Shown here piece by piece: positions 26,915 through 40,246 of a DNA stretch of 48,574 nt. The stretch is from Deltaproteobacteria bacterium (lineage in GTDB: Bacteria > Desulfobacterota > Deferrimicrobia > J040): contig WVXK01000002.1 in the NCBI GenBank assembly GCA_011773515.1, forward strand, positions 1 to 48,574, in the 5' to 3' direction. The notes under the pieces were generated by a model. It did no database searches and had not been told where the DNA came from. It saw nothing but the letters and a program-made list of their open reading frames with translations. The position numbers and the translations under genes were made by a program. Each line of letters starts with the position of its first letter. Position 1 is the first letter of the stretch.

Positions 26915-28204
26915 CTACAAGATCTTCTTCAGCACGTTCTCTGCAGCCCTGATGGTTTGATCGATATCCCTGCGGGTGTGGGCTGCCGAAACAAAGGCCG
27001 CTTCGAACTGGGAGGGAGCGAGGTACACCCCCGCGTTGAGCATGGCGTGAAAATAGCGGCCATACGTTTTCGTGTCCGTGCTTCTTGCTGTGTCATAGTC
27101 GTACACGGCGGGCAGGCCGGTGAAGAAGGCCGTGAACATGGAGCCCACCCTGTTGATGGGGATGTTTGCCTTCAATCTGGAAGCTATGCCCGACAGGCCG
27201 TCTGCGAGAACGGAGGCCTTCTCCTCCAGTTCCCGGTAAATGCTTCTCTTTTCAAGCGCCCTCAGCGTGGCCAGGCCCGCGGAGACGGCGAGTGGATTTC
27301 CTGACAGGGTCCCGGCCTGGTAGACGGGGCCGGTTGGGGAGATATGATCCATGATATCGCCTTTCCCCCCGAAGGCGCCAACGGGAAGGCCCCCCCCTAT
27401 TATCTTGCCCAGCACGGTAAGGTCCGGCTCAATCCCGAAAAGCTGCTGTGCGCCGCCCGGGGCCACCCTGAACCCCGACATGACCTCGTCGAAGATGAGC
27501 ACGATCCCCTCCTTTGCCGTGGCTTCCCTGAGGCCCTCGAGGAATCCGGGTTTCGGAACGATCACCCCCATGTTTCCCGGCACGGGCTCGATGACGACGC
27601 AGGCGACCTTGCCCCGGTTCGCTTTTATGAGCCTGCTCACCGAATCCAGGTCGTTGAAGCGTGCCGTGAGGGTCTCTCTGGCAAGCCCCTTCGGAACGCC
27701 CGGGCTGTCGGGAACGCCGAGGGTCGTGGCGCCGGACCCTGCTTTGACGAGCAGGCTGTCACCGTGGCCGTGGTAACACCCGGCGAACTTGATGATGCGG
27801 TCCCGTCCCGTGTAGCCCCGCGCAAGCCGGATTGCGCTCATGGCGGCTTCGGTGCCCGAGCTGACCAGCCGTACCCGCTGCATTGAGGGGAAGAATTTTT
27901 TTATCAGCTTCGCCAGCTCGATCTCGAGCTTCGTCGGGGCGCCGAAGCTCGTCCCCCTCTTCGCCGCCTCGCCGACCTGTTTGATCACGGCGGCCGGGGC
28001 GTGTCCGAGTATCATGGGGCCCCAGGAGCCGACGTAGTCGATGTATTCGTTCCCGTCCTCGTCCCACACCCGGGATCCCTTTGCCCTGGCGATGAACAGG
28101 GGGGTCCCGCCGACGGACTTGAAAGCCCGGACGGGCGAGTTCACCCCTCCCGGAATATGATTTTTGGCCTGACGGAAGAGCTTTCTCGAAACAGCGGTCT
28201 TCAT
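26915..28204 (-). CDS. hemL: glutamate-1-semialdehyde 2,1-aminomutase
   Basis: IPGGVNSPVRAF, DYVGSWGPMILGH, LIFDEVMSGFR and the PLP-Lys region LTVLGKIIGGGLPVGAFGG. I prefer the start MKTAVSRKLF at 28204 over the track's 28240. Confidence 0.93.
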   Translation of the reverse strand: MKTAVSRKLFRQAKNHIPGGVNSPVRAFKSVGGTPLFIARAKGSRVWDEDGNEYIDYVGSWGPMILGHAPAAVIKQVGEAAKRGTSFGAPTKLEIELAKLIKKFFPSMQRVRLVSSGTEAAMSAIRLARGYTGRDRIIKFAGCYHGHGDSLLVKAGSGATTLGVPDSPGVPKGLARETLTARFNDLDSVSRLIKANRGKVACVVIEPVPGNMGVIVPKPGFLEGLREATAKEGIVLIFDEVMSGFRVAPGGAQQLFGIEPDLTVLGKIIGGGLPVGAFGGKGDIMDHISPTGPVYQAGTLSGNPLAVSAGLATLRALEKRSIYRELEEKASVLADGLSGIASRLKANIPINRVGSMFTAFFTGLPAVYDYDTARSTDTKTYGRYFHAMLNAGVYLAPSQFEAAFVSAAHTRRDIDQTIRAAENVLKKIL

Positions 28205-28478
28205 GGCATCCCTCCACGCATCCTTGATGTGTGAACCCATGAACGATAACCGGGCGGGCTTCCGGAACTCCGGCCGGGTAGCGTTTTTGCACGCCCGCTG
28301 AAGCTCGTTTCTGATGGGCTCCCGATAAGTAAACTACGGAAAATCGATCGTGTCAACCATCGGGGAGCGAGGAGGCGCTTCTTCGATGAGGGTGTGGCCG
28401 AGATGGAGAATATGGCTATAATATAAGGAAAGGGGGCGCAGAAGGCAGGCGGCACGAGAGCCTGATGGGAGGTTTCAC

Positions 28479-28853
28479 ATGGGCAAGCGGGACAAGGAGC
28501 TGATCGAGTCCAACTACGGGGCTCTGTGGTCGGGTTCGCAGGAGATAACCGTCATGGGAAAAGCCCTCGGGATCAGAGACGTGCTCCGGGCTATCGACCT
28601 GGATGCAGGGGATATCGTCCCGATAGACGTGGTGAAACTGGGGGAAGACCGCTTTGCCCTGCGCTACTTTGACGGGGACGACCGGTGCGTGGTTGCCCTC
28701 GAGATGGATCGCCGGTACAGGATCACCAGCGAGCACAGGGCCCACGTAGCGGAATGGCTCGAGGACACCTACCACGGTATAGGGAGAGAAGCCATTTCTC
28801 CTTACGAACTGGTAAGTTACCTGATGGACCTCTACGGTGTGGAGGACCGGTAG
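28479..28853 (+). CDS. hypothetical protein, 124 aa (paralogue A of a tandem pair)
   Basis: GGGAGG lies 7 nt upstream of the ATG. The protein aligns along most of its length with the 131-aa product of 29104..29499 (MGxxDKxLIExxYGxLWxG...VPIDxVxLGExRxAxRYxDGDDRCVxxLExD...EHRAHxAxxLED). I recognise no family. Confidence 0.7.
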   Translation: MGKRDKELIESNYGALWSGSQEITVMGKALGIRDVLRAIDLDAGDIVPIDVVKLGEDRFALRYFDGDDRCVVALEMDRRYRITSEHRAHVAEWLEDTYHGIGREAISPYELVSYLMDLYGVEDR

Positions 28854-28923
28854 GGCCGGACCCGCTTTCCTTGAGAATGGCGGCCACCCTCTTCTCCCCG
28901 TCGATTCTTTCCCCCGGGATGCC

Positions 28924-28952
28924 TTGACCTTGGGAGAGAAAAGGGGTATAAG
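28924..28952 (+). promoter_or_regulatory. sigma70-like promoter upstream of paralogue B
   Basis: TTGACC (28924-28929), an exact 17-nt spacer, then TATAAG (28947-28952). Confidence 0.45.
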
Positions 28953-29103
28953 ATATATTCCCCGGCACTGCATGCGGGACCGCAGGTGTTATTCGTCTGT
29001 CCTGCCAGTTAATTTGGGGGCAAAAATCCCGAAATATCTGCCCCGTTTAGGGTAGAATTGTTGAATATAACGAGGCTGTTTCGCCGGACAAGGGAGGAAA
29101 GAC

Positions 29104-29499
29104 ATGGGGGTGAAGGACAAGCAGCTGATCGAGCAGAAATACGGAAAGCTCTGGACGGGCAAGGATATAATAACCATCGGCGACAAGCTTGTCACGAAGG
29201 AGGACGCGCTCAGGGCGTTTGACATCTGGATGGATGCCGTACCCATCGATCTCGTGGAGCTGGGGGAGAACAGGTATGCCTTTCGCTACTATGACGGCGA
29301 TGACCGGTGCGTGGGGGTGCTCGAGTTCGACGAGACGTTTCGTCTGCTCAAGGAGCACCGGGCACACATCGCCGATTTTCTCGAGGATGAGTCCGAATAT
29401 TACGAGCTGGGCATAAAGGCGTTTATGCCCGAGGAGGTTGCCCGCTTCCTCAGGGAACGGTACGAGAAGGAGGGTGGGGAGAAAGAGGGCGATGAGTGA
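29104..29499 (+). CDS. hypothetical protein, 131 aa (paralogue B of the tandem pair)
   Basis: GGGAGG lies 7 nt upstream of the ATG. It is clearly paralogous to 28479..28853 and has an acidic C-terminal tail (KEGGEKEGDE). Confidence 0.75.
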   Translation: MGVKDKQLIEQKYGKLWTGKDIITIGDKLVTKEDALRAFDIWMDAVPIDLVELGENRYAFRYYDGDDRCVGVLEFDETFRLLKEHRAHIADFLEDESEYYELGIKAFMPEEVARFLRERYEKEGGEKEGDE

Positions 29500-29863
29500 G
29501 GCGCGGTGCCTGAAAGCAAGTGAGAGGAGCTCGAGAATCCAGTATATGGTGGAGGGGGTTTTCGGGGACGAAGAGGGCATGAAGGTTCCGTTCTACGTGA
29601 TGGTCCTTCCCCACCACGCTTCGTATCAGACCGTCGCGAACAGGGGAGGAGAGAAGCTAACCGAACAATTTATAAGGGTTTTTGGAACCCCGACCGATGG
29701 GCCAACGGTGGTCAAGGGCGGGTCGTGCGGGGGAGAAGTGGGAGGGCTCGCAGGGGAGCTGGACGTCCATGGCGCCATGATGTCCCTCCTCTGGGACGGT
29801 GATCGCTTTGACAGGGGGCAGTTTATCGAAACCCTCAAAAAATTTTTAAAGGGCTGCCTCTGA
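29492..29863 (+). CDS. hypothetical protein, about 123 aa
   Basis: An ORF in protein-like composition (MVEGVFGDEEGMKVPFYVMVLPHHASYQTVANRGGEKLTEQFIRVFG...). The ATG at 29492 overlaps the upstream stop (ATGAGTGA), which suggests translational coupling, but the start is uncertain because the SD spacing is poor. Confidence 0.5.
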   Translation: MSEARCLKASERSSRIQYMVEGVFGDEEGMKVPFYVMVLPHHASYQTVANRGGEKLTEQFIRVFGTPTDGPTVVKGGSCGGEVGGLAGELDVHGAMMSLLWDGDRFDRGQFIETLKKFLKGCL

Positions 29864-29877
29864 AATAATATCGTGAA

Positions 29878-30225
29878 ATGGGATGTTTACATTGGAAAGT
29901 GACACGCTGCGAAAGTCGTGGAAGAGGCACTGTTCTCATCTATGAAGGGGAAAGCGTTGAGCAGTGCGGGAAGGAGAGGGTCTCCTTTCACTTCGTTATA
30001 AGAAGTGATATTTTCGTCGCCGACATCCTGGCCGAAACCACGGGCGGCTTTCGGTTCATCGAATTTTTAAAGGGGAAGTTCGGTGATCCGGAAGAGGATC
30101 CGCTTTATATCTTTCACGGCGAGTTCGGTGACGGCATTCCGGCCCTCCCGATATCGGCCTGGTGGAGAGTGGACCGGTACCGGGCGATTTCCGTCATGGA
30201 TGAGATTTTAAAAGGAGAGGGGTAA
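29878..30225 (+). CDS. hypothetical protein, 115 aa
   Basis: The ORF begins 14 nt after the previous stop and has no obvious SD. The sequence looks like a folded protein (TVLIYEGESVEQCGKERVSFHFVIRSDIFVADILAETTGGFRFIEFLKGKFGDPEEDPLYIFHGEF). I recognise no family. Confidence 0.5.
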   Translation: MGCLHWKVTRCESRGRGTVLIYEGESVEQCGKERVSFHFVIRSDIFVADILAETTGGFRFIEFLKGKFGDPEEDPLYIFHGEFGDGIPALPISAWWRVDRYRAISVMDEILKGEG

Positions 30226-30230
30226 CGTCA

Positions 30231-31649
30231 ATGGGAAAGAAAAAGGGGAAAAAAGAGGGGAAGAAAGGGCAAAAAGAGATAGAGTTAGAAGGTTTCGGTA
30301 TGGAAGAGGAAGTTCCCGCCACCTACCGCTCTCTCGTAACCGGGAGATTGCTCGCCAGGGAAGGCGTCATCATGACGAAACTGTCGGAAATGCAGGAGAG
30401 AGAGCTTCGGTTCACGGTGAGGATCTTTGCTGACTGCATGGAAGAGGAGGATATGGAGAGGTTTCTCGACGGGTATTCGGAATATATGATCGAGGAAGAT
30501 CTCATGAAATTCGTTGGAGATTTCGTCCCGAAGTATACCGCGTACGCAATTGCAGAGCTCGAACAGAGAAAGGAGAAGTCGGAAGGGTTCGAACCGGAGC
30601 AGATCACCGGGGAGGAACTTCAGGAGATGGCGATAAAGGAAAAATGGCCGAAGCTCGGGAAAAAACCGGAAGCTTTTTCGAGCCTTCGCCTGCGGAGGGA
30701 GATTGCCAAACTCGCCCTCTGCCTGAGGCCCTACATGCTCTCCGATCCCGGATGGAACGAATCTCTCCTGGAGTTTTCTCTCTACTACGATATCCAGGAA
30801 AAGCTGAAAGAGCTCCCGGTAGAGGAGATTCACGATGTCGTGAGGAAGATGGCATCCATGGTATTACAAGCAGATAAAGTAAAGGGTATAAAGGAAAAAG
30901 AAGAGGAATTGAGCAAGGTTAGGGCATACGTCCTTTCCCTCGCAGGTATGGAAGGGGACGTTAAAGAGCTCATCGGACCTCTCATGGAGCGGTACCCGAG
31001 GGAGGCTCCAGAGGGGTGGGAGCTTGCTGAATTCAGACATAATCTCAGGCAGATGAGCAAAAAAGATCTCCAGATGTCAGCGTTTGTTTACATAGAACTG
31101 CTGACCCTCTCGGAGATGGAGGAGCTTACCAGGCCGTTCATGGATAAATACAGCTCTTTCCATGAGATGGACAAGGAGACCCTGATCGATCTCATATGCG
31201 CTCTCGTATATGGCATCGGCGACAGACAGATTCTCGATTTTTTCGAGCGGTACACGAAGGGGAAGATGATGGTCGTGAAAGCCTATTCTCCAGAAACCTG
31301 GAAGCTGATCCCCAGAGAGAAGAAACTTCAGCATTTACGGGAAGATAACGACGAGATGGACATCGCGCTGATGGCCAGACACCTTGCGAGATTGTACATG
31401 ACGGAGATGTACAGCAAGCTGTACGACTACGATTTCCAGGTAGACCTTATCAAAAACCCCGGATACATGAAGACACAGGGAGCACTGGTAAGCGGGATGG
31501 GAGAGGCCGGTGAGGGAAAGCTCCTTCGAGCGCTGAACGACGAGGTTACCGTTTCCATGATCGATGTGGTAAGCAGCAGGGAAGATATCCGGGAGAAGTA
31601 TGCAGCCCTCAGAAAGCGTATAGCTTCCGCTCTGGGGTTCGAAATTTAA
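30231..31649 (+). CDS. hypothetical protein, 472 aa, K/E-rich and predicted helical, with Lys-rich N-terminus
   Basis: The ORF begins 5 nt after the previous stop, with AGGAGAGGGG upstream. It starts MGKKKGKKEGKKGQKE. I see no Walker, nuclease, HxH or other catalytic motif. The DNA is visibly more A/T-rich than the flanks. Confidence 0.75.
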   Translation: MGKKKGKKEGKKGQKEIELEGFGMEEEVPATYRSLVTGRLLAREGVIMTKLSEMQERELRFTVRIFADCMEEEDMERFLDGYSEYMIEEDLMKFVGDFVPKYTAYAIAELEQRKEKSEGFEPEQITGEELQEMAIKEKWPKLGKKPEAFSSLRLRREIAKLALCLRPYMLSDPGWNESLLEFSLYYDIQEKLKELPVEEIHDVVRKMASMVLQADKVKGIKEKEEELSKVRAYVLSLAGMEGDVKELIGPLMERYPREAPEGWELAEFRHNLRQMSKKDLQMSAFVYIELLTLSEMEELTRPFMDKYSSFHEMDKETLIDLICALVYGIGDRQILDFFERYTKGKMMVVKAYSPETWKLIPREKKLQHLREDNDEMDIALMARHLARLYMTEMYSKLYDYDFQVDLIKNPGYMKTQGALVSGMGEAGEGKLLRALNDEVTVSMIDVVSSREDIREKYAALRKRIASALGFEI

Positions 31650-31695
31650 TAGAACGCCTTTTGAATATAACTACTTAGCGAAGGAGGAGACGCAT

Positions 31696-31914
31696 ATGAA
31701 ATGGGAATACAAGGACAGAATGGTGATGTTTCAGGAAACTCCCGAAGGGCTCACGAGCGATATTTCCTGGCTGAACGAAGAGGGAGATGATGGATGGGAA
31801 GTCGTCGGGACGGTTCCCCTTATTGCGCCGAACAGAGACGGCATCGCATACGGGACCGTGGGGACGCACATTTTGATGAAACGCCCCAAGAAAGCGAAGG
31901 CAGGGAAAAAATAA
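31696..31914 (+). CDS. DUF4177-like small protein, 72 aa
   Basis: AAGGAGGAG lies upstream. MKWEYKDRMVMF...WLNEEGDDGWEVVGTVP...ILMKRP matches, from memory, the DUF4177 pattern (MKxEYK...LNxxGxxGWELV...KRP). It has a Lys-rich tail. Confidence 0.65.
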   Translation: MKWEYKDRMVMFQETPEGLTSDISWLNEEGDDGWEVVGTVPLIAPNRDGIAYGTVGTHILMKRPKKAKAGKK

Positions 31915-31933
31915 ACTAACGTTAATTTTTTTC

Positions 31934-31963
31934 TTGACAATCTTCGGATGGTGGTAATAGAAT
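31934..31963 (+). promoter_or_regulatory. sigma70-like promoter upstream of the CoA-transferase operon
   Basis: TTGACA (31934-31939), an 18-nt spacer, then TAGAAT (31958-31963). This would leave an untranslated leader of about 200 nt before the ATG at 32172. Confidence 0.45.
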
Positions 31964-32171
31964 AAAACACGTTTCTAGAATATCCCATCCAAAATAGTCG
32001 TGAGGGGGGGGGTTAAGGGTTTTATTTTTTGACAAGTGTCTGTTTTTATAGGCAGAAGTAGGCTGTTGAAAAATTCTTTGGGAAAGGGGGGATGCAAGGG
32101 GACAACCTCTATTTAAGTATCATTTACCCGTAAGGCTGTAGCAAGCAAGTCATTAAACAAGGAGGGGTAGA

Positions 32172-33596
32172 ATGGCTTATCGTGAAAAAGGAAAAACTCT
32201 ACCGACTATCAAGGTACTGAAATGGCCAGCGACGCCGACACCGACCGTTGACGAAGTCTACGCCGGAGTGAGCGACGAGGCGAAAGCCTACAACCTCTGG
32301 CTGGAAGCGGCGGTGCGGCAGGAGTTCAACCATGGCAAACCGGAGGCGCTGCAGGGAATCAGGGTCTTGGACTGCTCCCAGAGGATGATCATCGGCCACT
32401 GGGCTTCGTCCCATTTTTCCGAGATGGGTGCCGAGGTCATCATGGTGGAGCCGCCGACGGGAGACCCACTGCGGCAGCTCACGCCATTCGGCAGGGAAAA
32501 CTACATGTTCGAGGACACGAAGGGCGAGAAGTGCGGCGCACGGTTCCTCTGCGAGGCGAGGAGCAAGCTCGCCGTCACCCTCGACCTGGAGAAGGAAGAG
32601 GGCCGTGAGATACTGAAGAAGTTCATTCCCCACACCGACGTCCTCATCGAGAACTACCCGCCGGGCCAGTTCGACGCCTGGGGCATCGGCTACCGCCAGC
32701 TCTCGGAGATCAACCCCCGCCTGGTGTACCTCTGGGTGGGACAGAGAGGGCAGTGGGGCCCGCTGAAGGATAAGCCCTGGATGCACGATCCCGTCGCCCA
32801 GAACGCCATGGGCTTCACCCACGGAACGGGCGCCCCGAAGGAGATGGGAGGCCAGCCGGTCCGCTCGGGATGGTGGATGGCCGAGCAGGTGGGCGGAACC
32901 TTCGCGTGTCTCGGCGTCATGGCGGCGCTTATCGCGAGAGATTCCTTTTACGGAAAAGGACAGTTCGTGGAAGGAACGGGTGCGGAAGGCGTCATGCGGA
33001 TCATCGACTACAACTGGGGATGGTACGGCATGGACGGATCGGTCAGGCCCCGTTATGGAAACTGGGACCTCGCCATAAACATCTACGCCGTCAATCCCTG
33101 TTCCGACGGCCAGATCATGGTGGGCGGCGGCCACGACCGGCTCTGGTTCCGGATCTGGAGGACGGTGGGTAAGGAAAAACCCGAGATCGAAGACCATATC
33201 GTTGAGGATCCAAAGCTCAAGGTGGTCACCGACAGGCTCCCCCACTACATGCAGGTCAAGACCTACACCTGTCTCGTGGAGTGGATGAAGGACCACACCC
33301 GGTACGAGTGCGAGGTGGCCCTCCAGGAGGAGGAGGTCGCATCGGGCGGCGTTTCCTTCTTCGACGAGGTCTGCGAGTTTCCGCACTATAAGTACCGCGG
33401 GCACGTGGAGGAGATTCACGACAGCAACTACGGTACGGTCCTCATCGGATCATCGGTTTTCATCGGCCAGAAGACTCCCGGCCGGGTCAAGACGATCGGC
33501 AGACCCATCGGCCACGATAACGATGACGTGTATCGGAGGCTGCTCGGGTTCAACAGGGAAGACATGAAGAACTTAAAGAAATCGGGGGTGATCTGA
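32172..33596 (+). CDS. family III (CaiB/BaiF-type) CoA-transferase, subunit 1
   Basis: The N-terminal Rossmann-like signature is IRVLDCSQRMIIGHWASSHFSEMGAEVIMVEPPTGDPLR, followed by VLIENYPPGQFDAWGIGY. AAGGAGGGG lies upstream. At 474 aa it is longer than typical members (about 400 aa). Confidence 0.9.
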   Translation: MAYREKGKTLPTIKVLKWPATPTPTVDEVYAGVSDEAKAYNLWLEAAVRQEFNHGKPEALQGIRVLDCSQRMIIGHWASSHFSEMGAEVIMVEPPTGDPLRQLTPFGRENYMFEDTKGEKCGARFLCEARSKLAVTLDLEKEEGREILKKFIPHTDVLIENYPPGQFDAWGIGYRQLSEINPRLVYLWVGQRGQWGPLKDKPWMHDPVAQNAMGFTHGTGAPKEMGGQPVRSGWWMAEQVGGTFACLGVMAALIARDSFYGKGQFVEGTGAEGVMRIIDYNWGWYGMDGSVRPRYGNWDLAINIYAVNPCSDGQIMVGGGHDRLWFRIWRTVGKEKPEIEDHIVEDPKLKVVTDRLPHYMQVKTYTCLVEWMKDHTRYECEVALQEEEVASGGVSFFDEVCEFPHYKYRGHVEEIHDSNYGTVLIGSSVFIGQKTPGRVKTIGRPIGHDNDDVYRRLLGFNREDMKNLKKSGVI

Positions 33597-34957
33597 TGAC
33601 ATTATCAAAAGAACTCAAAGAAATGACCTTCGAAGACTTCTGCAGGAGCGTCTTCGATCCCAAGAAGAGGCACAGCAAGCCCCAGGTGCTCAAGGGGAAA
33701 GTGTCCATCTCGACTACCCAGTACATTCTCGGCCCGTCAAACGCGGCGTACCTGGCGGAGCTCGGCTCTCAGACCATCAAGGTCGAGCTGCCCAAGCGGG
33801 GCGAGCCCATGAGGCACACCACCCCCTTCAACGAGCCCTTCCTCTATCCCCTCTCCCGGTGGATGCCGGACAAGGGGACGGGGCTTGGCTTCTTCGGTGC
33901 CAACCACAACGAGTACTTCCTGGCTCTCGACTTCCATAAGCCCGAGGCCGTGGAGATCATGAGGATGTTGCAGGCCAAGGCCGACACCCAGAGCGAGAAC
34001 TACCGTGCGGGTACCTTCGACCGGTGGGGCGTCGGCTACCGGCAGGCTGCGGAAGTGAATCCCCGCATCATCTACCAGTGGATGGGAGGCTTCGGCGGAT
34101 GGGGCCCCGGAAGGAACAGGGCTTCCTACGACATCCTCGGACAGGCCCAGGGCGGCTGCTTCTCCGTCACCGGCCTGCAGGGCGAGAAGGGTGGCATGCC
34201 CTCGAAGCAGACCATCTGGATCATGGACTACTGGGGCGGTGCGATGGCTGCCTTCCAGATTCTCGCGAACATGTGGTGGAGGGACAACATCTCGGGCCAG
34301 GGCAACTTCATGGAATACTCACAGGTCCACGGAGCCCAGAGGCACCTCTCCGACTGCATCGCCCTCTACGGCAGGTACGGCCTCGTGTCACAGAGGTGGG
34401 GCCAGTGGGATATCCTCCTCTGCGTCCACGGCAACATCAAGTGCGGGAAGTCCTCTTACCCCAAGTCGGACAACCCCCAGGAGCTCGAGGAGGGCTACAT
34501 TCTCGTTTCCGCACACGAAGATGACGACTACGCTACCCTCTGCAACATGATCGGAAAGCCTGATCTGGCGAAGAAGTTCCCCACCCACAAGGACCGTCTG
34601 CAGCCGGAGAACCAGTTCACGATCTACGCGGCGATCGAGGAGTGGGCTGCCGACAAGACGAAGGAAGAGGTCGCGGCAATTTGCGACAAGAACAACATCA
34701 TCAACCAGCCCGTGTGGAACTCCAAGGAAGTCTCCGAGCACGAGCACTACAAGATGAGGGGAACCTGCGAGTTTATCGACGATCCCCACTTCGGGGACCT
34801 GCAGATCCAGTCGGCCGGGTACCTCATGTCCGATACGCCTCCGCGGACCAACTGGGCGTTCAAGCCCGTGGGAGCCGATAACGAAGCGATATTGGCGAAG
34901 TTCTGCGGCTTTGGCGGCAGCGACATCGAAAAGCTGTACGAGGAAGAGGTTATATAA
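33596..34957 (+). CDS. family III CoA-transferase, subunit 2 (divergent)
   Basis: The start shares one nucleotide with the upstream stop (TGATG). Family III-like blocks are present: GPSNAAYLAELGSQTIKVELPKRGEPMR, YRAGTFDRWGVGY and NPRIIYQWMGGFGGWGP. Confidence 0.85.
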   Translation: MTLSKELKEMTFEDFCRSVFDPKKRHSKPQVLKGKVSISTTQYILGPSNAAYLAELGSQTIKVELPKRGEPMRHTTPFNEPFLYPLSRWMPDKGTGLGFFGANHNEYFLALDFHKPEAVEIMRMLQAKADTQSENYRAGTFDRWGVGYRQAAEVNPRIIYQWMGGFGGWGPGRNRASYDILGQAQGGCFSVTGLQGEKGGMPSKQTIWIMDYWGGAMAAFQILANMWWRDNISGQGNFMEYSQVHGAQRHLSDCIALYGRYGLVSQRWGQWDILLCVHGNIKCGKSSYPKSDNPQELEEGYILVSAHEDDDYATLCNMIGKPDLAKKFPTHKDRLQPENQFTIYAAIEEWAADKTKEEVAAICDKNNIINQPVWNSKEVSEHEHYKMRGTCEFIDDPHFGDLQIQSAGYLMSDTPPRTNWAFKPVGADNEAILAKFCGFGGSDIEKLYEEEVI

Positions 34958-34988
34958 TCACTACTGAAACAACAATAGGGGGTACAAT

Positions 34989-35381
34989 ATGAGCTTTTTC
35001 AAAACGACGTCACTGATCGTGGAGCACGACTGCGGGGTGAGAAATTACCTCGACCCCTTCACCTTCTGGAACTTCAAAGGGAAGATCAAGTGCGCAGGGT
35101 GTGACGCTGTCTTCTCCTATGCGCTGAGAAAAGGGGTACGGCAGAGCGGCCCGGATCCGGCCGACCCGCCCCACGACATGCTGCCCGGATATGCCGAGGA
35201 CCAGGAGTGGGGGGCGATCACCGATCCGACGAAGGTGAACAAACCACCCCAGGCGAGGGCGGACTTCCAGGGGAAGCCGATCCCCATCACCAAGAGCGTG
35301 CGGGGGAAGAAGGTGTCAGGATCGCCCCTAACCGAGGCTGATCTCGTGGGGTCGGTTCCGAAATTCCTCATCGAGGATTGA
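34989..35381 (+). CDS. hypothetical protein, 130 aa
   Basis: GGGGG lies upstream of the ATG. The protein contains C15 and a CAGC pair (KIKCAGCDAVF) and a Pro-rich middle. I recognise no family. Confidence 0.55.
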   Translation: MSFFKTTSLIVEHDCGVRNYLDPFTFWNFKGKIKCAGCDAVFSYALRKGVRQSGPDPADPPHDMLPGYAEDQEWGAITDPTKVNKPPQARADFQGKPIPITKSVRGKKVSGSPLTEADLVGSVPKFLIED

Positions 35382-35416
35382 TGAGCAGCTACTGAAAAAA
35401 ACAAGGAGGTCTTATC

Positions 35417-35587
35417 GTGGCTAAAAAAGTTCCTGATTGTCAAAATTGCCAGAACTTCAGCCCGGCCCTGGACCCCTTCATCGCCGAGGCCTACATCGGC
35501 CAGTGCATGAAGATCGAGTATCCATTAGCGATCAATATTCCCAAGGATGGAATAGAAGGAGAGTGTGGTTACTTCGAGAAGGCATAG
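35417..35587 (+). CDS. small four-Cys protein, 56 aa (not in ORF track)
   Basis: GTG at 35417 follows AAGGAGG (35403-35409). The hand translation is MAKKVPDCQNCQNFSPALDPFIAEAYIGQCMKIEYPLAINIPKDGIEGECGYFEKA*, with Cys pattern C-x2-C-x18-C-x19-C. A strong terminator follows. Confidence 0.55.
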   Translation: MAKKVPDCQNCQNFSPALDPFIAEAYIGQCMKIEYPLAINIPKDGIEGECGYFEKA

Positions 35588-35623
35588 TGCCGGTCTGAAA
35601 GATGTTCAACGGTAAATAAGGTA

Positions 35624-35665
35624 AATCCACGGCCGGGTTCACCGGCCGTGGATTTTGCTGTTTTT
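35624..35665 (+). terminator. intrinsic terminator
   Basis: A perfect 13-14-bp stem AATCCACGGCCGG / CCGGCCGTGGATT encloses a 5-nt loop (gttca) and is followed by TTGCTGTTTTT. Confidence 0.8.
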
Positions 35666-35721
35666 GGCCCAAAATCAATAAAACGCTTTTTCAAAATCAA
35701 AGTGAAGGAGGTTATCGAGCC

Positions 35722-36099
35722 ATGAAAGTTGAGTTCTACTACAGCAGTGCTGTGGACCCTGCGAAGCAGTATTTCTGCGACATCCCCAAGACCCTCGAGC
35801 TTTTGGAGCAGCTGAAGGGAAAGGAAGGGTTCATCGTGACCGTAACGGATATGAAAACCTTCGAAGGGAACATCTTCAGGACCTACAATGCCTCCTGCAC
35901 CGGTCCTCCCGCTCCCAAAAGGGGCGTGTTCGGCACCAAAGGCGCCCTCGAAGAGGACTTCGGCACAACCGTTCCCGCCCTGCTCGTTTTTGAAAAGGAT
36001 GATTCGAGATATCCCGACGAGGTCTTTCCCCGGATGGACAGGGAGCTGGGCAGGCTCATGCCCTGTGAGGAAGCGGCGCAGAACCTTGTCGACAGGTAG
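35722..36099 (+). CDS. hypothetical protein, 125 aa
   Basis: GAAGGAGG lies upstream. The sequence is MKVEFYYSSAVDPAKQYFCDIPKTLELLEQLKGKEGFIVTVTDMKTFEG.... I recognise no family, though a thioredoxin-like alpha/beta fold is possible. Confidence 0.55.
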   Translation: MKVEFYYSSAVDPAKQYFCDIPKTLELLEQLKGKEGFIVTVTDMKTFEGNIFRTYNASCTGPPAPKRGVFGTKGALEEDFGTTVPALLVFEKDDSRYPDEVFPRMDRELGRLMPCEEAAQNLVDR

Positions 36100-36134
36100 G
36101 GATTTGAAACACCATTTCACGGGAGGAGGTTCCA

Positions 36135-37766
36135 ATGGGAAAGATACCGGAAAGCTATCTGCCGCCGAAGGAAAGCTGGCCCGAGAGGCCCTATGACCTG
36201 GCAGAGTACAGGGATGTCCCCCAGAACTTCAACGCCTGCGAAGAGCTGATCGACGCGAACGTCAAGGCGGGGAGGGGGGACAAAGTAGCAATTAAATTCA
36301 TGGACCAGGAGATAACCTACGCGCAGTTTTTGTCCAACATCTGCAGGGTTGCCAATGGGCTCAAGAAACTCGGGATAGAGGAAAACGACAGGGTCTTTTT
36401 GCGTATGCCCAACATCCCGCCCCTTCTCTACTGCAACTTCGCGGCCCTGAGGATCGGTGCGGTTGCCCTGCCCACGTCGATACTGTTCGCCAGGACAGAG
36501 ATCGCCCATGTGGCCAATCTCTCCGAGTCGAAGATCATCATCGTCTCCGCCATGTTTCTGGAAGAGGTGGAAAAGGCGAAGGAGGATCTCCAGACGGTGG
36601 AGCAGATCGTCGTCGTCGGCGGTGAGGAGGACGAGATCCGGGGGAAAGGGTTCATTCCTTTTTCGGACCTGATGAAGAATCCCGACACCTGCGAGGCGGT
36701 TCCCAAAGAGCGCATGGACGTGGGCCTTCTGCTCTTCACGTCGGGGACGACGGGCCTTCCCAAGGGGACCGTTCATTTCAACGAGGAATTTCTCATCATC
36801 CCCGACGGGTTCGGAAAGTACTGCTGGGAAGTGAATGAGAACGATGTCATCGGGGGTCCCGCACCCCTCGCCATGGCTGCGGGCTACTCCACCATCGGAA
36901 CGATCCCCTTCCGCTTCGGGGCAGCCGTGTCGCTCATCCCGCGGTTCACTCCCGAGGATCTCTTCAAGAACATCGAGAACCACAAGATCACCATCCTCTC
37001 GGCCCTTCCCACCGCCTACCGGAAGATGCTGGTTGATATCAATCCCGCCGACTGGGATTACAGCTCTCTTCGCATCTGCACCGGCGGCGGCGAGGCGCTG
37101 ACGGCGAAAACCTACGAGGACTGGAAGGAAAAGTTCGGCCTCGAAATCTTCGAGGGTCTCGGGACGACGGAGATGATGTTCGTCTTCGTCTCGAGCGCCG
37201 TGACGAAGAAGGTAAAGCCCGGATGGATAGGGACGGCGGTGCCGGGGTATGTTGTCAAAGTCGTCAACGACGAGGGCCAAGATTGCAAGCCCGGCGAGAT
37301 CGGAAAGATGGTCGTCGTAGGCCCAACGGGTACCATCTACTGGAGAGACCCGGAGAGACAGGGCACCTCCGTGAAGGATGGCTGGTGCCAGGCGGGCGAC
37401 GTGGTGACCATGGATGAAGATGGGTACATACAGTTCCTCTCCCGGGAGGATGACCTGATTAAATCTTCCGGGTACAGGATCGGGCCCGAGGAGATCGAGG
37501 AGGCGCTCGTGACCCATCCCTCCGTTGCGGATGCGGGCGTTATCGGTATCCCCGACGAAGTCATGGGTCAGAAAACGAAGGCCTTCGTGGCGCTCAACGA
37601 GGGAGTCGAGCCATCTGAAGAGCTGAAGAAGGAGCTCGTCGAGCACTGCAAGGGAAAGATCGCCGTTTACAAGCTGCCCAGAGAGATCCAGTTTATCGAC
37701 GCCATGCCGAGGACGATGGTGGGCAAGCTCCTCCGGCGGAAGCTCAGGGATCTGGAAACGTCCTAG
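36135..37766 (+). CDS. AMP-forming acyl-CoA / aryl-CoA ligase (ANL superfamily)
   Basis: The AMP-binding motif is LLLFTSGTTGLPKGTVH, followed by GYRIGPEEIEEAL and the C-terminal A10 motif PRTMVGKLLRRKL. GGGAGGAGG lies upstream. Confidence 0.92.
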   Translation: MGKIPESYLPPKESWPERPYDLAEYRDVPQNFNACEELIDANVKAGRGDKVAIKFMDQEITYAQFLSNICRVANGLKKLGIEENDRVFLRMPNIPPLLYCNFAALRIGAVALPTSILFARTEIAHVANLSESKIIIVSAMFLEEVEKAKEDLQTVEQIVVVGGEEDEIRGKGFIPFSDLMKNPDTCEAVPKERMDVGLLLFTSGTTGLPKGTVHFNEEFLIIPDGFGKYCWEVNENDVIGGPAPLAMAAGYSTIGTIPFRFGAAVSLIPRFTPEDLFKNIENHKITILSALPTAYRKMLVDINPADWDYSSLRICTGGGEALTAKTYEDWKEKFGLEIFEGLGTTEMMFVFVSSAVTKKVKPGWIGTAVPGYVVKVVNDEGQDCKPGEIGKMVVVGPTGTIYWRDPERQGTSVKDGWCQAGDVVTMDEDGYIQFLSREDDLIKSSGYRIGPEEIEEALVTHPSVADAGVIGIPDEVMGQKTKAFVALNEGVEPSEELKKELVEHCKGKIAVYKLPREIQFIDAMPRTMVGKLLRRKLRDLETS

Positions 37767-37813: not shown

Positions 37814-38902
37814 ATGTCCGAAAAGTGCGCTTTCATATACCATCCCGTGTATGAGGACAGGGGCCTCTCTCCTTTTCCCTCTGTCTGGCAGCGATATGCC
37901 CTCACGAAAGATCTGCTCGAAAAACTCGGTATCATTCCGGTGTCGGTGGCCGTTGTCGAGCCGCCGGTGGCGGATGAAGAGCAGCTCCTGCTCGCGCACG
38001 CGAAGGAGTATATTGAATTTGTCAAGAAAAAGAGCGTAGAGGGAACGGGATTTCTCGATTACGGCGACACACCTGCATACCCCGGGGTTTTCAATCGCGC
38101 TTCTGCCAGCGCCGGCGGTTCCGCCGAAGGGGCGCGGCTCATCGCCCGGGGGGAATACGACCATGTCTTCAATCCCGGAGGAGGGCTTCATCATGCCCGG
38201 TACAGCAGCGCGGGGGGTTTTTGCGTGTTCAACGATCTGGCCCTTGCCGTCAGGGTTCTCACCTCGGAGTTCGATATCGAGCGGGTTGCCGTTGTCGACA
38301 TCGACGGGCACCACGCCGACGGGACCCAGGAGTATTTTTACCGGGAGCAGATCCTCACCGTCTCCCTGCACCGTTTCGACCCTCTTTTTTACCCGGGAAG
38401 CGGCTCCACCTTGGAACTCGGGGAGGGGCAAGGGTATGGATACAGCGTAAACGTGCCCCTTCCGGCGAGAACGCCGGGCGACCTCTTCCTGGAGGCCTTC
38501 GAGTCGATTGTCCCCCCCCTTCTCCGATGGTACGCGCCCGAAGTGGTCATTCTCCAGTGCGGGGTAGACGGCCACTACCAGGACCCCCTCGTCCGCCTGT
38601 ATCTGACAACGCACACCTTTGAGGCGGTTGCCGGGTCCATGCACGACCTGGCCCACGAACTCTGCGGGGGGAAGCTCCTCCTCCTGGGAGGTGGGGGGTA
38701 CAGCCCGGAGAACGTTGCGAGGTGCTGGGCGGTCATGTTTGCGGCCATAACCGGTGCCGTGGCGGAGGACAAAAAGGAGCTCCTCGCATCTATCCGCGAC
38801 GTGGCAATAAAAAATCCTCAAGCCGATATCAGCGAGGCGGTCAGGGAGAGCGTGGAGAGCCTCAAGGGCAGACTCGAGCATATCCACGGCCCGATTTTTT
38901 AA
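37814..38902 (+). CDS. histone-deacetylase-family (AcuC/AphA-like) deacetylase
   Basis: GGGLHHARYSSAGGFCVFNDLALAV, VDIDGHHADGTQEYF and GGGGY are classical Zn-dependent arginase/deacetylase-fold motifs. Confidence 0.9.
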   Translation: MSEKCAFIYHPVYEDRGLSPFPSVWQRYALTKDLLEKLGIIPVSVAVVEPPVADEEQLLLAHAKEYIEFVKKKSVEGTGFLDYGDTPAYPGVFNRASASAGGSAEGARLIARGEYDHVFNPGGGLHHARYSSAGGFCVFNDLALAVRVLTSEFDIERVAVVDIDGHHADGTQEYFYREQILTVSLHRFDPLFYPGSGSTLELGEGQGYGYSVNVPLPARTPGDLFLEAFESIVPPLLRWYAPEVVILQCGVDGHYQDPLVRLYLTTHTFEAVAGSMHDLAHELCGGKLLLLGGGGYSPENVARCWAVMFAAITGAVAEDKKELLASIRDVAIKNPQADISEAVRESVESLKGRLEHIHGPIF

Positions 38903-38917
38903 AGAGAGGAGGACCGG

Positions 38918-39325
38918 GTGTCCAGTGCAAGGATAGAAAGGCGTGTGCGGTTCGGGGATACGGACCCCTTCGGAGTTCTCTACTTTGCCGCCCTCCTCGA
39001 CTACTACAAGGACAGCGTGGACGAGTGGTTCCGGAATGTGGGAGAGGCGCCGGAAAAGATCTACCGGAACAGGGAGGAGCGCTTCGGGTTTCCCGTTGTG
39101 CACGTCGAGGCAGATTACATGAAGCCCGTCCGGTACGACGAACTCGTCGTCCTGGAGTGCGCCGTCGACTCCGTGGGAGACAAGAGCGTTACCTTTGCCG
39201 TCGTTGCGCGGGCGGGGAATGAAATCGCATCGAAGGGAAGGCTGACCTTCGCCTCCATATCGGATGACTGGAAGCCGATACCGTTGCCGGAGCGGATTGC
39301 CAACCTCGTAAAAAAGAAGAAATAA
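38918..39325 (+). CDS. acyl-CoA thioesterase, hotdog fold (YbgC/4HBT-like)
   Basis: VRFGDTDPFGVLYFAALLDYY... is the typical N-terminal catalytic Asp region of 4HBT-class thioesterases. The protein is 135 aa. Confidence 0.85.
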   Translation: MSSARIERRVRFGDTDPFGVLYFAALLDYYKDSVDEWFRNVGEAPEKIYRNREERFGFPVVHVEADYMKPVRYDELVVLECAVDSVGDKSVTFAVVARAGNEIASKGRLTFASISDDWKPIPLPERIANLVKKKK

Positions 39326-39463: not shown

Positions 39464-40246
39464 TTATCGGCCTGCTCTCTCGAGGGCCTCTCTCACCTTC
39501 TTGACCATCCCCACGATCTCCTCGAGCTTTCTGTACCTGCCCTCTATCTTGAAGACATCGACGCCCGCATCTACCCAATCGCCTATATTGCCGGTGATGT
39601 CGTGGTCGGGATGTGACCCGAGAATGCCCCTGCAAACGGTGTGGCAGAGGCCGGTCTTTTTCGATGACCGAAGCGGGGCGGCGGCGGATGCATCACCCGC
39701 CAGGAGGTACCCCGCGAGCATGCACTTGCCCTGCGTGACCGGTTCGGCCCTGCAGATGGCGAAGACCTCCACCGCTATTTTCGAGACCCTTTTTATTTCT
39801 GCGATGTCGCCGGGAGAGGCAATGAGAGGCATGACCATCGAACGGGCGCCCAGCCGCTCCAGAAAGAGTGCGTCGTAGGGGTTTATCGCACAGAGGCCGA
39901 CACTGACGGAGGGAGATGCCTCGGGAAAGCTCCGCGTGATGAGCTGCAGGAGGCCGTGCTCGTTCACGACAAAATTCCTGTATCCAGCCCGCAAAAGGGC
40001 CTCCAGGGACGAGGTGATCCCCTCCCAGTCTCTGGCGGGGGCGACGACGTTTATGGCCACGTGGATCTTTTCCGCGATACCGGGATTATCCCGTTCGAAA
40101 TCAATAAGGTCGCGCTCATCGGGAGAGGTGCGAACCCCCTCGCGGGAAAATTTCCGGAGGCCGGTCAGGAGGCGGTCGGCACCTGCCTCGAAGAGGTCAT
40201 GGCTCATCCCTATGGCTGGAAGGGGGGCGAGAATATCGGCCATCAC
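39464..40246 (-). CDS. U32-family protein (peptidase U32 / UbiV-RlhA-like Fe-S hydroxylase family)
   Basis: The C-terminal hallmark is GVDVFKIEGRYRKLEEIV. Upstream Cys residues are arranged as in U32 proteins (FAICRAEPVTQGKCMLAGY...GLCHTVCRG). At 260 aa it is short for the family. Confidence 0.8.
   Translation of the reverse strand: MMADILAPLPAIGMSHDLFEAGADRLLTGLRKFSREGVRTSPDERDLIDFERDNPGIAEKIHVAINVVAPARDWEGITSSLEALLRAGYRNFVVNEHGLLQLITRSFPEASPSVSVGLCAINPYDALFLERLGARSMVMPLIASPGDIAEIKRVSKIAVEVFAICRAEPVTQGKCMLAGYLLAGDASAAAPLRSSKKTGLCHTVCRGILGSHPDHDITGNIGDWVDAGVDVFKIEGRYRKLEEIVGMVKKVREALERAGR

Follow-up and report, generated by a model that had tools for sequence, protein, structure and literature searches.

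A cassette of six co-directional genes occupies positions 28479-31914 on the forward strand of a 48,574-nucleotide (nt) stretch of DNA from a Deltaproteobacteria bacterium (contig WVXK01000002.1 of assembly GCA_011773515.1), the whole of which is referred to here as the window; the lineage is Candidatus Deferrimicrobia (MBNT15) (PMC9386147). The cassette lies between hemL and an operon that encodes coenzyme A (CoA)-transferases and an acyl-CoA ligase, and an initial annotation made from the sequence had proposed it as the best candidate for an undescribed system. Its products fall into four families, three of which (A, B, and C) have no match in the libraries searched. The module is limited to two phyla, Deferrimicrobiota (MBNT15) and Methylomirabilota (NC10), in both of which it is found close to the same set of genes for CoA-transferase, ligase, and U32-family proteins.

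The first gene, A1 (28479-28853, 124 aa), is separated by a 250-nt spacer from A2 (29104-29499, 131 aa), which overlaps B1 (29492-29863, 123 aa from its ATG) by 8 nt (ATGAGTGA), and the translation of B1 is predicted to be coupled to that of A2 through this overlap. B2 (29878-30225, 115 aa), C (30231-31649, 472 aa), and D (31696-31914, 72 aa) follow on the same strand after gaps of 14, 5, and 46 nt, respectively; these lengths and spacings agree with those in the initial annotation. A Shine-Dalgarno site that matches AGGAGG at 5 or 6 of 6 positions stands ahead of five starts (the site of A1 is GGGAGG), where four strong sites had been claimed; no such match was found before the ATG of the 115-aa open reading frame (ORF), B2. 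The start of B2 in the public gene call is 7 codons downstream, giving a protein of 108 aa, and a GTG at 29899 is a possible alternative start. The same six genes are called in an independent public annotation of the identical contig (GCA_012975005.1). In comparisons with the closest relative (locus L006), the ratio of nonsynonymous to synonymous substitution rates (dN/dS) is 0.09-0.32 for the five ORFs in which it could be estimated, with dS near saturation (A1, 0.13; B1, 0.32; B2, 0.26), and in D, where synonymous sites are saturated, the proportions of nonsynonymous and synonymous differences (pN and pS) are 0.07 and 0.80. Because the ORFs are conserved with low dN/dS (or, for D, with pN below pS) and are called independently, all six are real, constrained coding genes. 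The products are acidic to near-neutral, with isoelectric points of 4.6-6.6; no transmembrane or hydrophobic segments were seen in any of the six, and a motif scan of them gave no Walker A, CxxC, HExxH, or DEAD motif.

The spacer between A1 and A2 contains a single strongly conserved block, 28924-28952, when the window is aligned with loci L003, L006, and L100, the last two of which are identical in the spacer. This block is a predicted sigma-70-like promoter on the forward strand, consisting of TTGACC (28924-28929), 17 nt, and TATAAG (28947-28952), and in L008 and L009, which have only one A gene, the same motif lies ahead of that gene; a consensus scan scored the promoter of the spacer in a weaker, shifted version. 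Together with the overlap and the 5-46-nt spacing of the genes and with their Shine-Dalgarno sites, the conserved predicted promoter supports the view that A2-B1-B2-C-D is one transcription unit, as had been suggested for the last five genes in the initial annotation. A second predicted sigma-70-like promoter on the forward strand (31934-31963; TTGACA, 18 nt, TAGAAT; 11/12 consensus positions) would serve the CoA-transferase operon and would mark the 3' boundary of the cassette transcription unit.

The four protein families

The initial annotation had overlooked the paralogy of the 124- and 131-aa proteins and of the 123- and 115-aa proteins; from their sequences, the six ORFs are assigned to four families with two duplications (two A, two B, C, and D). 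A1 and A2 are 49% identical (E 2e-40), and the family has the invariant motifs RY.DG.D and E.RAH.A. B1 and B2 are remote paralogues (pairwise E 8e-4) that represent two subtypes, both of which keep invariant G, P, P, G, and W positions in an alignment of 20 sequences. B1 is of the VKGGxCGGE subtype, and the subtype of B2 is also carried by NC10, B2 matching the B protein of the NC10 locus L061 at E 1.6e-11. No relationship between families A and B was detected by hhalign. A2 corresponds to the A gene that stands upstream of C in nearly all loci that reach far enough, whereas A1 is an extra paralogue restricted to the clade of the window, and the joint presence of both B subtypes has the same restriction. 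A pairing of the duplicated A and B proteins with the halves of C, described below, is unsupported, because the number of A genes does not change in step with the number of B genes from clade to clade: two A and one B are present in L003, but one A and two B in L008 and L009. Family B also appears to be absent from many loci, there being no room for a full-length B gene in 33 of the 78 Deferrimicrobia-type loci with A upstream of C.

Searches of Pfam, NCBIfam, PADLOC, and PHROGs with the window proteins and with 11-20 family members, the latter scanned at E ≤ 1, gave no significant match for A, B, or C, and profiles of A, B, C, and D gave nothing convincing against PDB sequences, where the only match of interest was a weak one between A and a MarR wing. 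The products remain as uncharacterized as the initial annotation had held them to be, and its statement that they do not resemble known defense, toxin-antitoxin, or secretion modules is borne out by the same four library scans. An AlphaFold2 model of A from 21 sequences has a predicted local distance difference test score (pLDDT) of 84.3 and a predicted template modeling score (pTM) of 0.79 and consists of an N-terminal helix, a β-hairpin, a four-strand β-meander, and C-terminal helices; Foldseek comparison of this model with the PDB gave nothing below E 0.1. The MarR match (E 0.035) covers only the wing region of one MarR structure (motif RY.D..DR..V), and a role for A as a MarR or winged-helix regulator was rejected because the model places the motif in the β-meander, has no helix-turn-helix, and has no Foldseek match. 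A type II toxin-antitoxin pair involving A or B was also considered and set aside, there being no Pfam, NCBIfam, or PHROG match and no DNA-binding fold in the model of A.

The model of C, from an alignment of 40 sequences, is entirely α-helical (25 helices and no strand; pLDDT 87.7, pTM 0.76). Residues 1-26 (30231-30308) form a Lys-rich disordered N-terminal tail (KKKGKKEGKKGQKE); the long form of this tail is confined to the closest relatives (59-100% identity) and is absent from other lineages. The remainder of the protein is divided into two homologous halves of ∼220 residues each, residues 27-250 (about 30309-30980) and 251-472 (about 30981-31646), which hhalign aligns end to end over 192 columns with an E of 2.3e-5. 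Controls made by reversal and by column shuffling gave E values of 0.02 or more, and since the halves align far better than these controls, C is interpreted as an internal tandem duplication. Foldseek comparisons of C with the PDB and BFVD gave nothing below E 0.1, and the top results for both A and C, either membrane transporters or single propeller blades, had template modeling (TM) scores of about 0.1-0.3. Neither the profile searches nor the structural comparisons of the A and C models, both proposed as checks in the initial annotation, gave a confident match to a characterized housekeeping family; as confident models with no solved analogue, A and C may represent new folds. A Cyclin-box/Cyclin_C assignment for C was rejected, the match being present in only 1 of 11 members at 18.5 bits, as against a cut-off of 22 bits, with no fold match in the PDB. 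The family is small: when 1.84 billion representative proteins were searched exhaustively with its profile, only 70 clusters were recovered, and the more than 150 close homologues are all labeled hypothetical except for one evidently mislabeled entry. Between the two phyla, in which the C proteins are ∼30% identical, 33 positions are invariant, including the stretch D.xxMDxxxxxRH, and 20 of them are Arg, Lys, Asp, Glu, His, Tyr, Trp, or Thr.

D is the most conserved of the cassette products, being 60-65% identical to the D proteins of NC10, and contains the invariant motif LIAPN.G.AYGTVG. The initial annotation had recognized it as similar to DUF4177, and all 25 D-family members compared match this Pfam family (PF13783) at E ≤ 0.1, the best at 1.5e-5; the window protein itself scores 20.6 bits (E 5e-4, positions 7-64 of 65), below the 25-bit cut-off. 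D resembles DUF4177 in its N-terminal WEY start, its GWE(L/V)V motif, and the coverage of nearly the whole length of the model, but differs in an extra invariant loop, PLIAPNRDGxAYGTVG, and in a score just under the gathering cut-off. These features are consistent, at a sub-threshold level, with D being a divergent member of DUF4177 or of a sister family. No established function for DUF4177 was found in the literature consulted, and the match therefore provides no mechanistic explanation. The C-terminal tail of D is Lys-rich (31890-31914, KKAKAGKK), and its long form is present only in the window and L006.

Gene neighborhoods in the two phyla

Synteny was counted in 104 Deferrimicrobia-type loci with duplicates kept, the denominators being those loci that reach far enough. 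The gene order is invariant, with hemL on the opposite strand followed by A, B when present, C, D, and the CoA-transferase operon: D follows C in 90/90 loci, the first CoA-transferase gene (CoAT1) comes after D in 65/65, hemL is divergent and upstream in 62/62, and A is upstream of C in 78/84. The initial annotation had noted a low GC content and taken it as a hint of a separate history. The dip is real in the window, where the GC content at third codon positions (GC3) is 0.60 in B2, 0.65 in C, and 0.66 in D, compared with 0.73-0.85 in the flanking genes, but it is not general; it is shared only by the nearest relatives, and in most other genomes the cassette has the same GC3 as its flanks (0.93-0.96 throughout in L027, for example). 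No homologues of C were found in the phage, plasmid, and viral collections IMG/VR, PLSDB, and INPHARED. Fixed synteny with both flanks, the GC3 of relatives, and the absence from mobile-element collections indicate that the cassette is a core locus passed on vertically rather than an island, so that neither a separate evolutionary history nor a mobile origin is upheld; horizontal transfer as the cause of the GC dip is rejected on the basis of the synteny and the GC3 of relatives. An anti-phage defense system was rejected on two grounds: PADLOC-DB v2 gave no significant match for the six proteins (best E 0.011, over a 38-residue stretch), and the distribution, with a fixed position in the Deferrimicrobia loci and no C in the three collections named above, is not that of a defense system or genomic island.

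In NC10, divergent full-length C proteins (28-34% identity) are encoded in modules with the order A, in some cases a B gene of the B2 type, C, and D, usually followed by a gene for a TPR protein; D is sometimes missing. The genes for hemL, ATP synthase, and the other flanks in the window are absent from the NC10 loci, and the adjacency of hemL is therefore lineage-specific; a link with tetrapyrrole synthesis, which the divergent hemL neighbor might have suggested, was rejected for the same reason. When all 42 genes of the window were compared with 304 kb of NC10 loci, homologues were found only for A, C, D, CoAT1/2, the ligase, U32, and two of the small ORFs of the CoA-transferase operon (130 and 125 aa); B is too divergent for the threshold of this comparison, and the NC10 B proteins were found in a separate search. 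The acyl-CoA ligases of the window and NC10 are 61-68% identical. In all five NC10 loci with enough flanking sequence (L066, L079, L144, L145, and L147), the module has the ligase gene on its downstream side, at a distance of 0.1-7 kb and in the opposite orientation. In L079, L145, and L147, the two are separated by two or three U32 genes, and where the loci extend far enough, the ligase is followed by the 125-, 56-, and 130-aa ORFs and a CoA-transferase. Because the module and the ligase operon have opposite orientations in NC10, their adjacency has survived rearrangement, and proximity retained through an inversion and a change of every other neighbor is a classical signature of functional coupling. 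Co-localization of cassette homologues across genomes, which the initial annotation had proposed to examine, is thus found with the CoA-transferase/ligase/U32 set in unrelated lineages (65/65 and 5/5 loci), and an independence of the cassette from the metabolic operon does not fit the persistence of the two together in a second phylum.

In the window, the forward-strand operon at 32172-37766 encodes two family-III CoA-transferases, three small ORFs, and an AMP-forming acyl-CoA ligase, and the reverse-strand gene at 39464-40246 encodes a U32-family protein. The assignments of these enzymes are generic only: family-III CoA-transferase, benzoate-CoA-ligase-like, and distantly UbiU/TrhP-like. The small ORFs (34989-35381, 130 aa, Cys-containing; 35417-35587, 56 aa, with CxxC; 35722-36099, 125 aa) have no match in Pfam or NCBIfam and constitute a second set of uncharacterized families; in NC10, conservation of the 130- and 125-aa ORFs is 55-59%, and in L147 the position of the 56-aa ORF is taken by an ORF of 54 aa. 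CoAT1 is preceded by a leader of ∼200 nt (promoter plus leader, 31934-32171) that includes a run of nine G, and an Rfam scan of 27900-32400, which covers this leader, gave no match. A histone-deacetylase-family gene and a 4HBT thioesterase gene (37814-39325) follow the ligase in the window, and no homologue of either was found in the NC10 loci examined. On the other side of the cassette, the sequence TGTCAACC at 28351-28358, between hemL and A, is retained at this place in L006, L008, and L009, and the reverse complement, GGTTGACA, is likely to be the −35 box of the divergent hemL.

Additional genes accompany the module in NC10. A co-directional array upstream of A (L079, 1730-12640; L145, 1-10059; L063, 3865-12154) has the order 378-aa protein, JAMM/Rpn11-like peptidase, α/β hydrolase, ∼268-aa protein, AAA+, VWA, ∼270-aa copy, and A-B-C-D-TPR, so that a family of 260-290-aa proteins of unknown function occurs twice. 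The AAA+ protein is ChlI/MoxR-like (Mg_chelatase/AAA_5/AAA_lid_2), and the AAA+ and VWA pair is found in several lineages. The JAMM peptidase, from one lineage, keeps its HxHx7Sx2D motif intact, and its structural match is to an archaeal Rpn11-like protein (PDB 6fjv, E 5e-5). The 378-aa protein (u378) ends in HPHVWNAKPCLGN and is E2-like by eye only; neither it nor the 260-290-aa family (o260) was identified by Pfam or PDB sequence searches. A conserved domain of ∼70 residues (L071, 18309-19025; L078, 10132-10794; L144, 8968-9600; L145, 3209-4525) has weak ThiS/TGS matches (E about 0.1) and may be β-grasp-like; one NC10 type has it as an in-frame N-terminal fusion to A, and in another type (L145) it lies in frame at the N terminus of the annotated AAA+ gene. 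None of these partners, the AAA+, VWA, JAMM, and TPR proteins included, occurs in the window or in any of the Deferrimicrobia loci examined. Some NC10 loci have genes of the HEPN, nucleotidyltransferase, SNase, or CHAT type near the module. A second C paralogue is also present in NC10 (L066-L094 and L146; e.g., L071, 10001-13153, and L146, 8244-11088), sometimes with D between it and the following gene and with A and B not nearby.

Interpretation and comparison with known systems

The explanation that is tentatively favored is that A-D form a soluble hetero-oligomeric accessory complex that works with the adjacent putative anaerobic acyl-CoA pathway. In this proposal, a vertically inherited, chromosomal operon of four previously undescribed or uncharacterized families would yield products that are all soluble and cytoplasmic; C would be the platform of the putative complex, and A, B, and D would be its small subunits, A and B being small acidic α/β proteins. 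One hetero-oligomeric complex is suggested by the tight packing and partial overlap of the genes, and a role as an accessory component of the acyl-CoA pathway is inferred because the module stays beside the same gene set in both phyla; judged from gene arrangement, both complex formation and functional coupling to the pathway are plausible. Roles that the complex might have beside the pathway include assembly, tethering, regulation, or provision of a new catalytic subunit.

Several observations weigh against this proposal. The cassette and the CoA-transferase operon each have their own predicted promoter, and in NC10 the module and the ligase operon are not co-transcribed, because they are on opposite strands. 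The ligase operon is not in the few kilobases available downstream of the module in L059 and L065, and the second C paralogue of NC10 is followed in every case (24 loci) by a gene for an HD-domain protein (474 aa). The conserved proximity to the CoA-transferase/ligase/U32 set could be a relic of a single ancient en bloc transfer or of common descent, and the neighboring pathway is itself uncharacterized.

One alternative has to be taken seriously as a possible account of the locus, although it is not the one preferred: that the cassette encodes an independent, lineage-specific housekeeping or regulatory complex, such as a protein-assembly or protein-modification factor, and that the neighborhood is a relic of ancestry or en bloc transfer. 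Besides the separate promoters and the opposite strands, it would account for the co-directional partners in NC10, which are a TPR protein, the AAA+/VWA pair in several lineages, and the JAMM/Rpn11-like peptidase in one; for the fusion of the ∼70-residue domain to AAA+ or to A, which points to protein-protein machinery and not to metabolism; and for the presence in L146 of the C paralogue beside the HD-domain protein, away from the ligase operon. However, the ligase, CoA-transferase, and U32 genes stay with the module in every informative NC10 locus despite the inversion, which no other gene of the window does, and the AAA+, VWA, JAMM, and TPR partners are missing from the window and from its Deferrimicrobia relatives.

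It is unlikely that the neighboring pathway has in C, perhaps together with A and B, a new enzyme and not a scaffold. This reading is suggested by the invariant charged or aromatic residues of C across the two phyla (about 20 of 33 invariant positions) and favored by the invariant acidic turn Y.DG.D of A and by the three more small proteins of unknown function that the adjacent operon already encodes, but no catalytic family or fold was matched, the invariant charged residues are equally well explained by subunit interfaces, and B is fast-evolving and dispensable in about 40% of assessable Deferrimicrobia loci. Similarly doubtful, and if anything more so, is the suggestion that A-D are the core of an undescribed cytoplasmic protein-tagging or protein-remodeling machine that controls the CoA-transferase/ligase/U32 pathway and has a fuller form in NC10, where an AAA+ ATPase, VWA, TPR, and JAMM/Rpn11-like proteins, and possibly a β-grasp-like domain, would be added; this reading is drawn from the partners in the NC10 array, the fusions of the ∼70-residue domain, and the HD-linked C paralogue. 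Finally, a horizontally acquired island with a new defense or toxin-antitoxin-like system is very improbable, since the low GC3 of B2, C, and D in the window, the lack of known functions among the cassette proteins, and the HEPN, nucleotidyltransferase, SNase, or CHAT genes near some NC10 loci are opposed by a single fixed position in every Deferrimicrobia locus fetched, a GC3 equal to that of the flanks in most relatives, the lack of PADLOC or PHROG matches and of C in phages, plasmids, and IMG/VR, and the absence of mobile-element matches, with no integrase, tRNA, or repeats listed in the initial annotation.

Whichever explanation is correct, A, B, and C have no relatives in the libraries and structure collections searched and yet are core genes under purifying selection in two uncultured phyla, of which MBNT15 is of importance for iron reduction and NC10 for nitrite-dependent methane oxidation. 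Together with the CoA-transferase/ligase/U32 cluster, the module makes up a block of roughly 12 kb of unknown biochemistry that is common to both. It should be noted that the novelty of the families means that nothing matched them and does not imply a new mechanism.

Two groups of known systems are relevant for comparison. The proposed accessory complex has no sequence or fold relationship to any of the accessory and scaffold proteins of metabolic complexes, and the analogy with them comes from general knowledge and not from homology, but there is a likeness in that the cassette is a compact operon for small, soluble, acidic proteins beside a pathway operon, in a neighborhood that is conserved across phyla. 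The second group comprises the MoxR/ChlI-type AAA+ plus VWA systems with TPR adaptors. A-D are unlike the known clients and adaptors of these systems, whose genes are confined to the NC10 side of the comparison, but in NC10 the module is co-directional with AAA+, VWA, and TPR genes, and it is in this arrangement that the resemblance lies.

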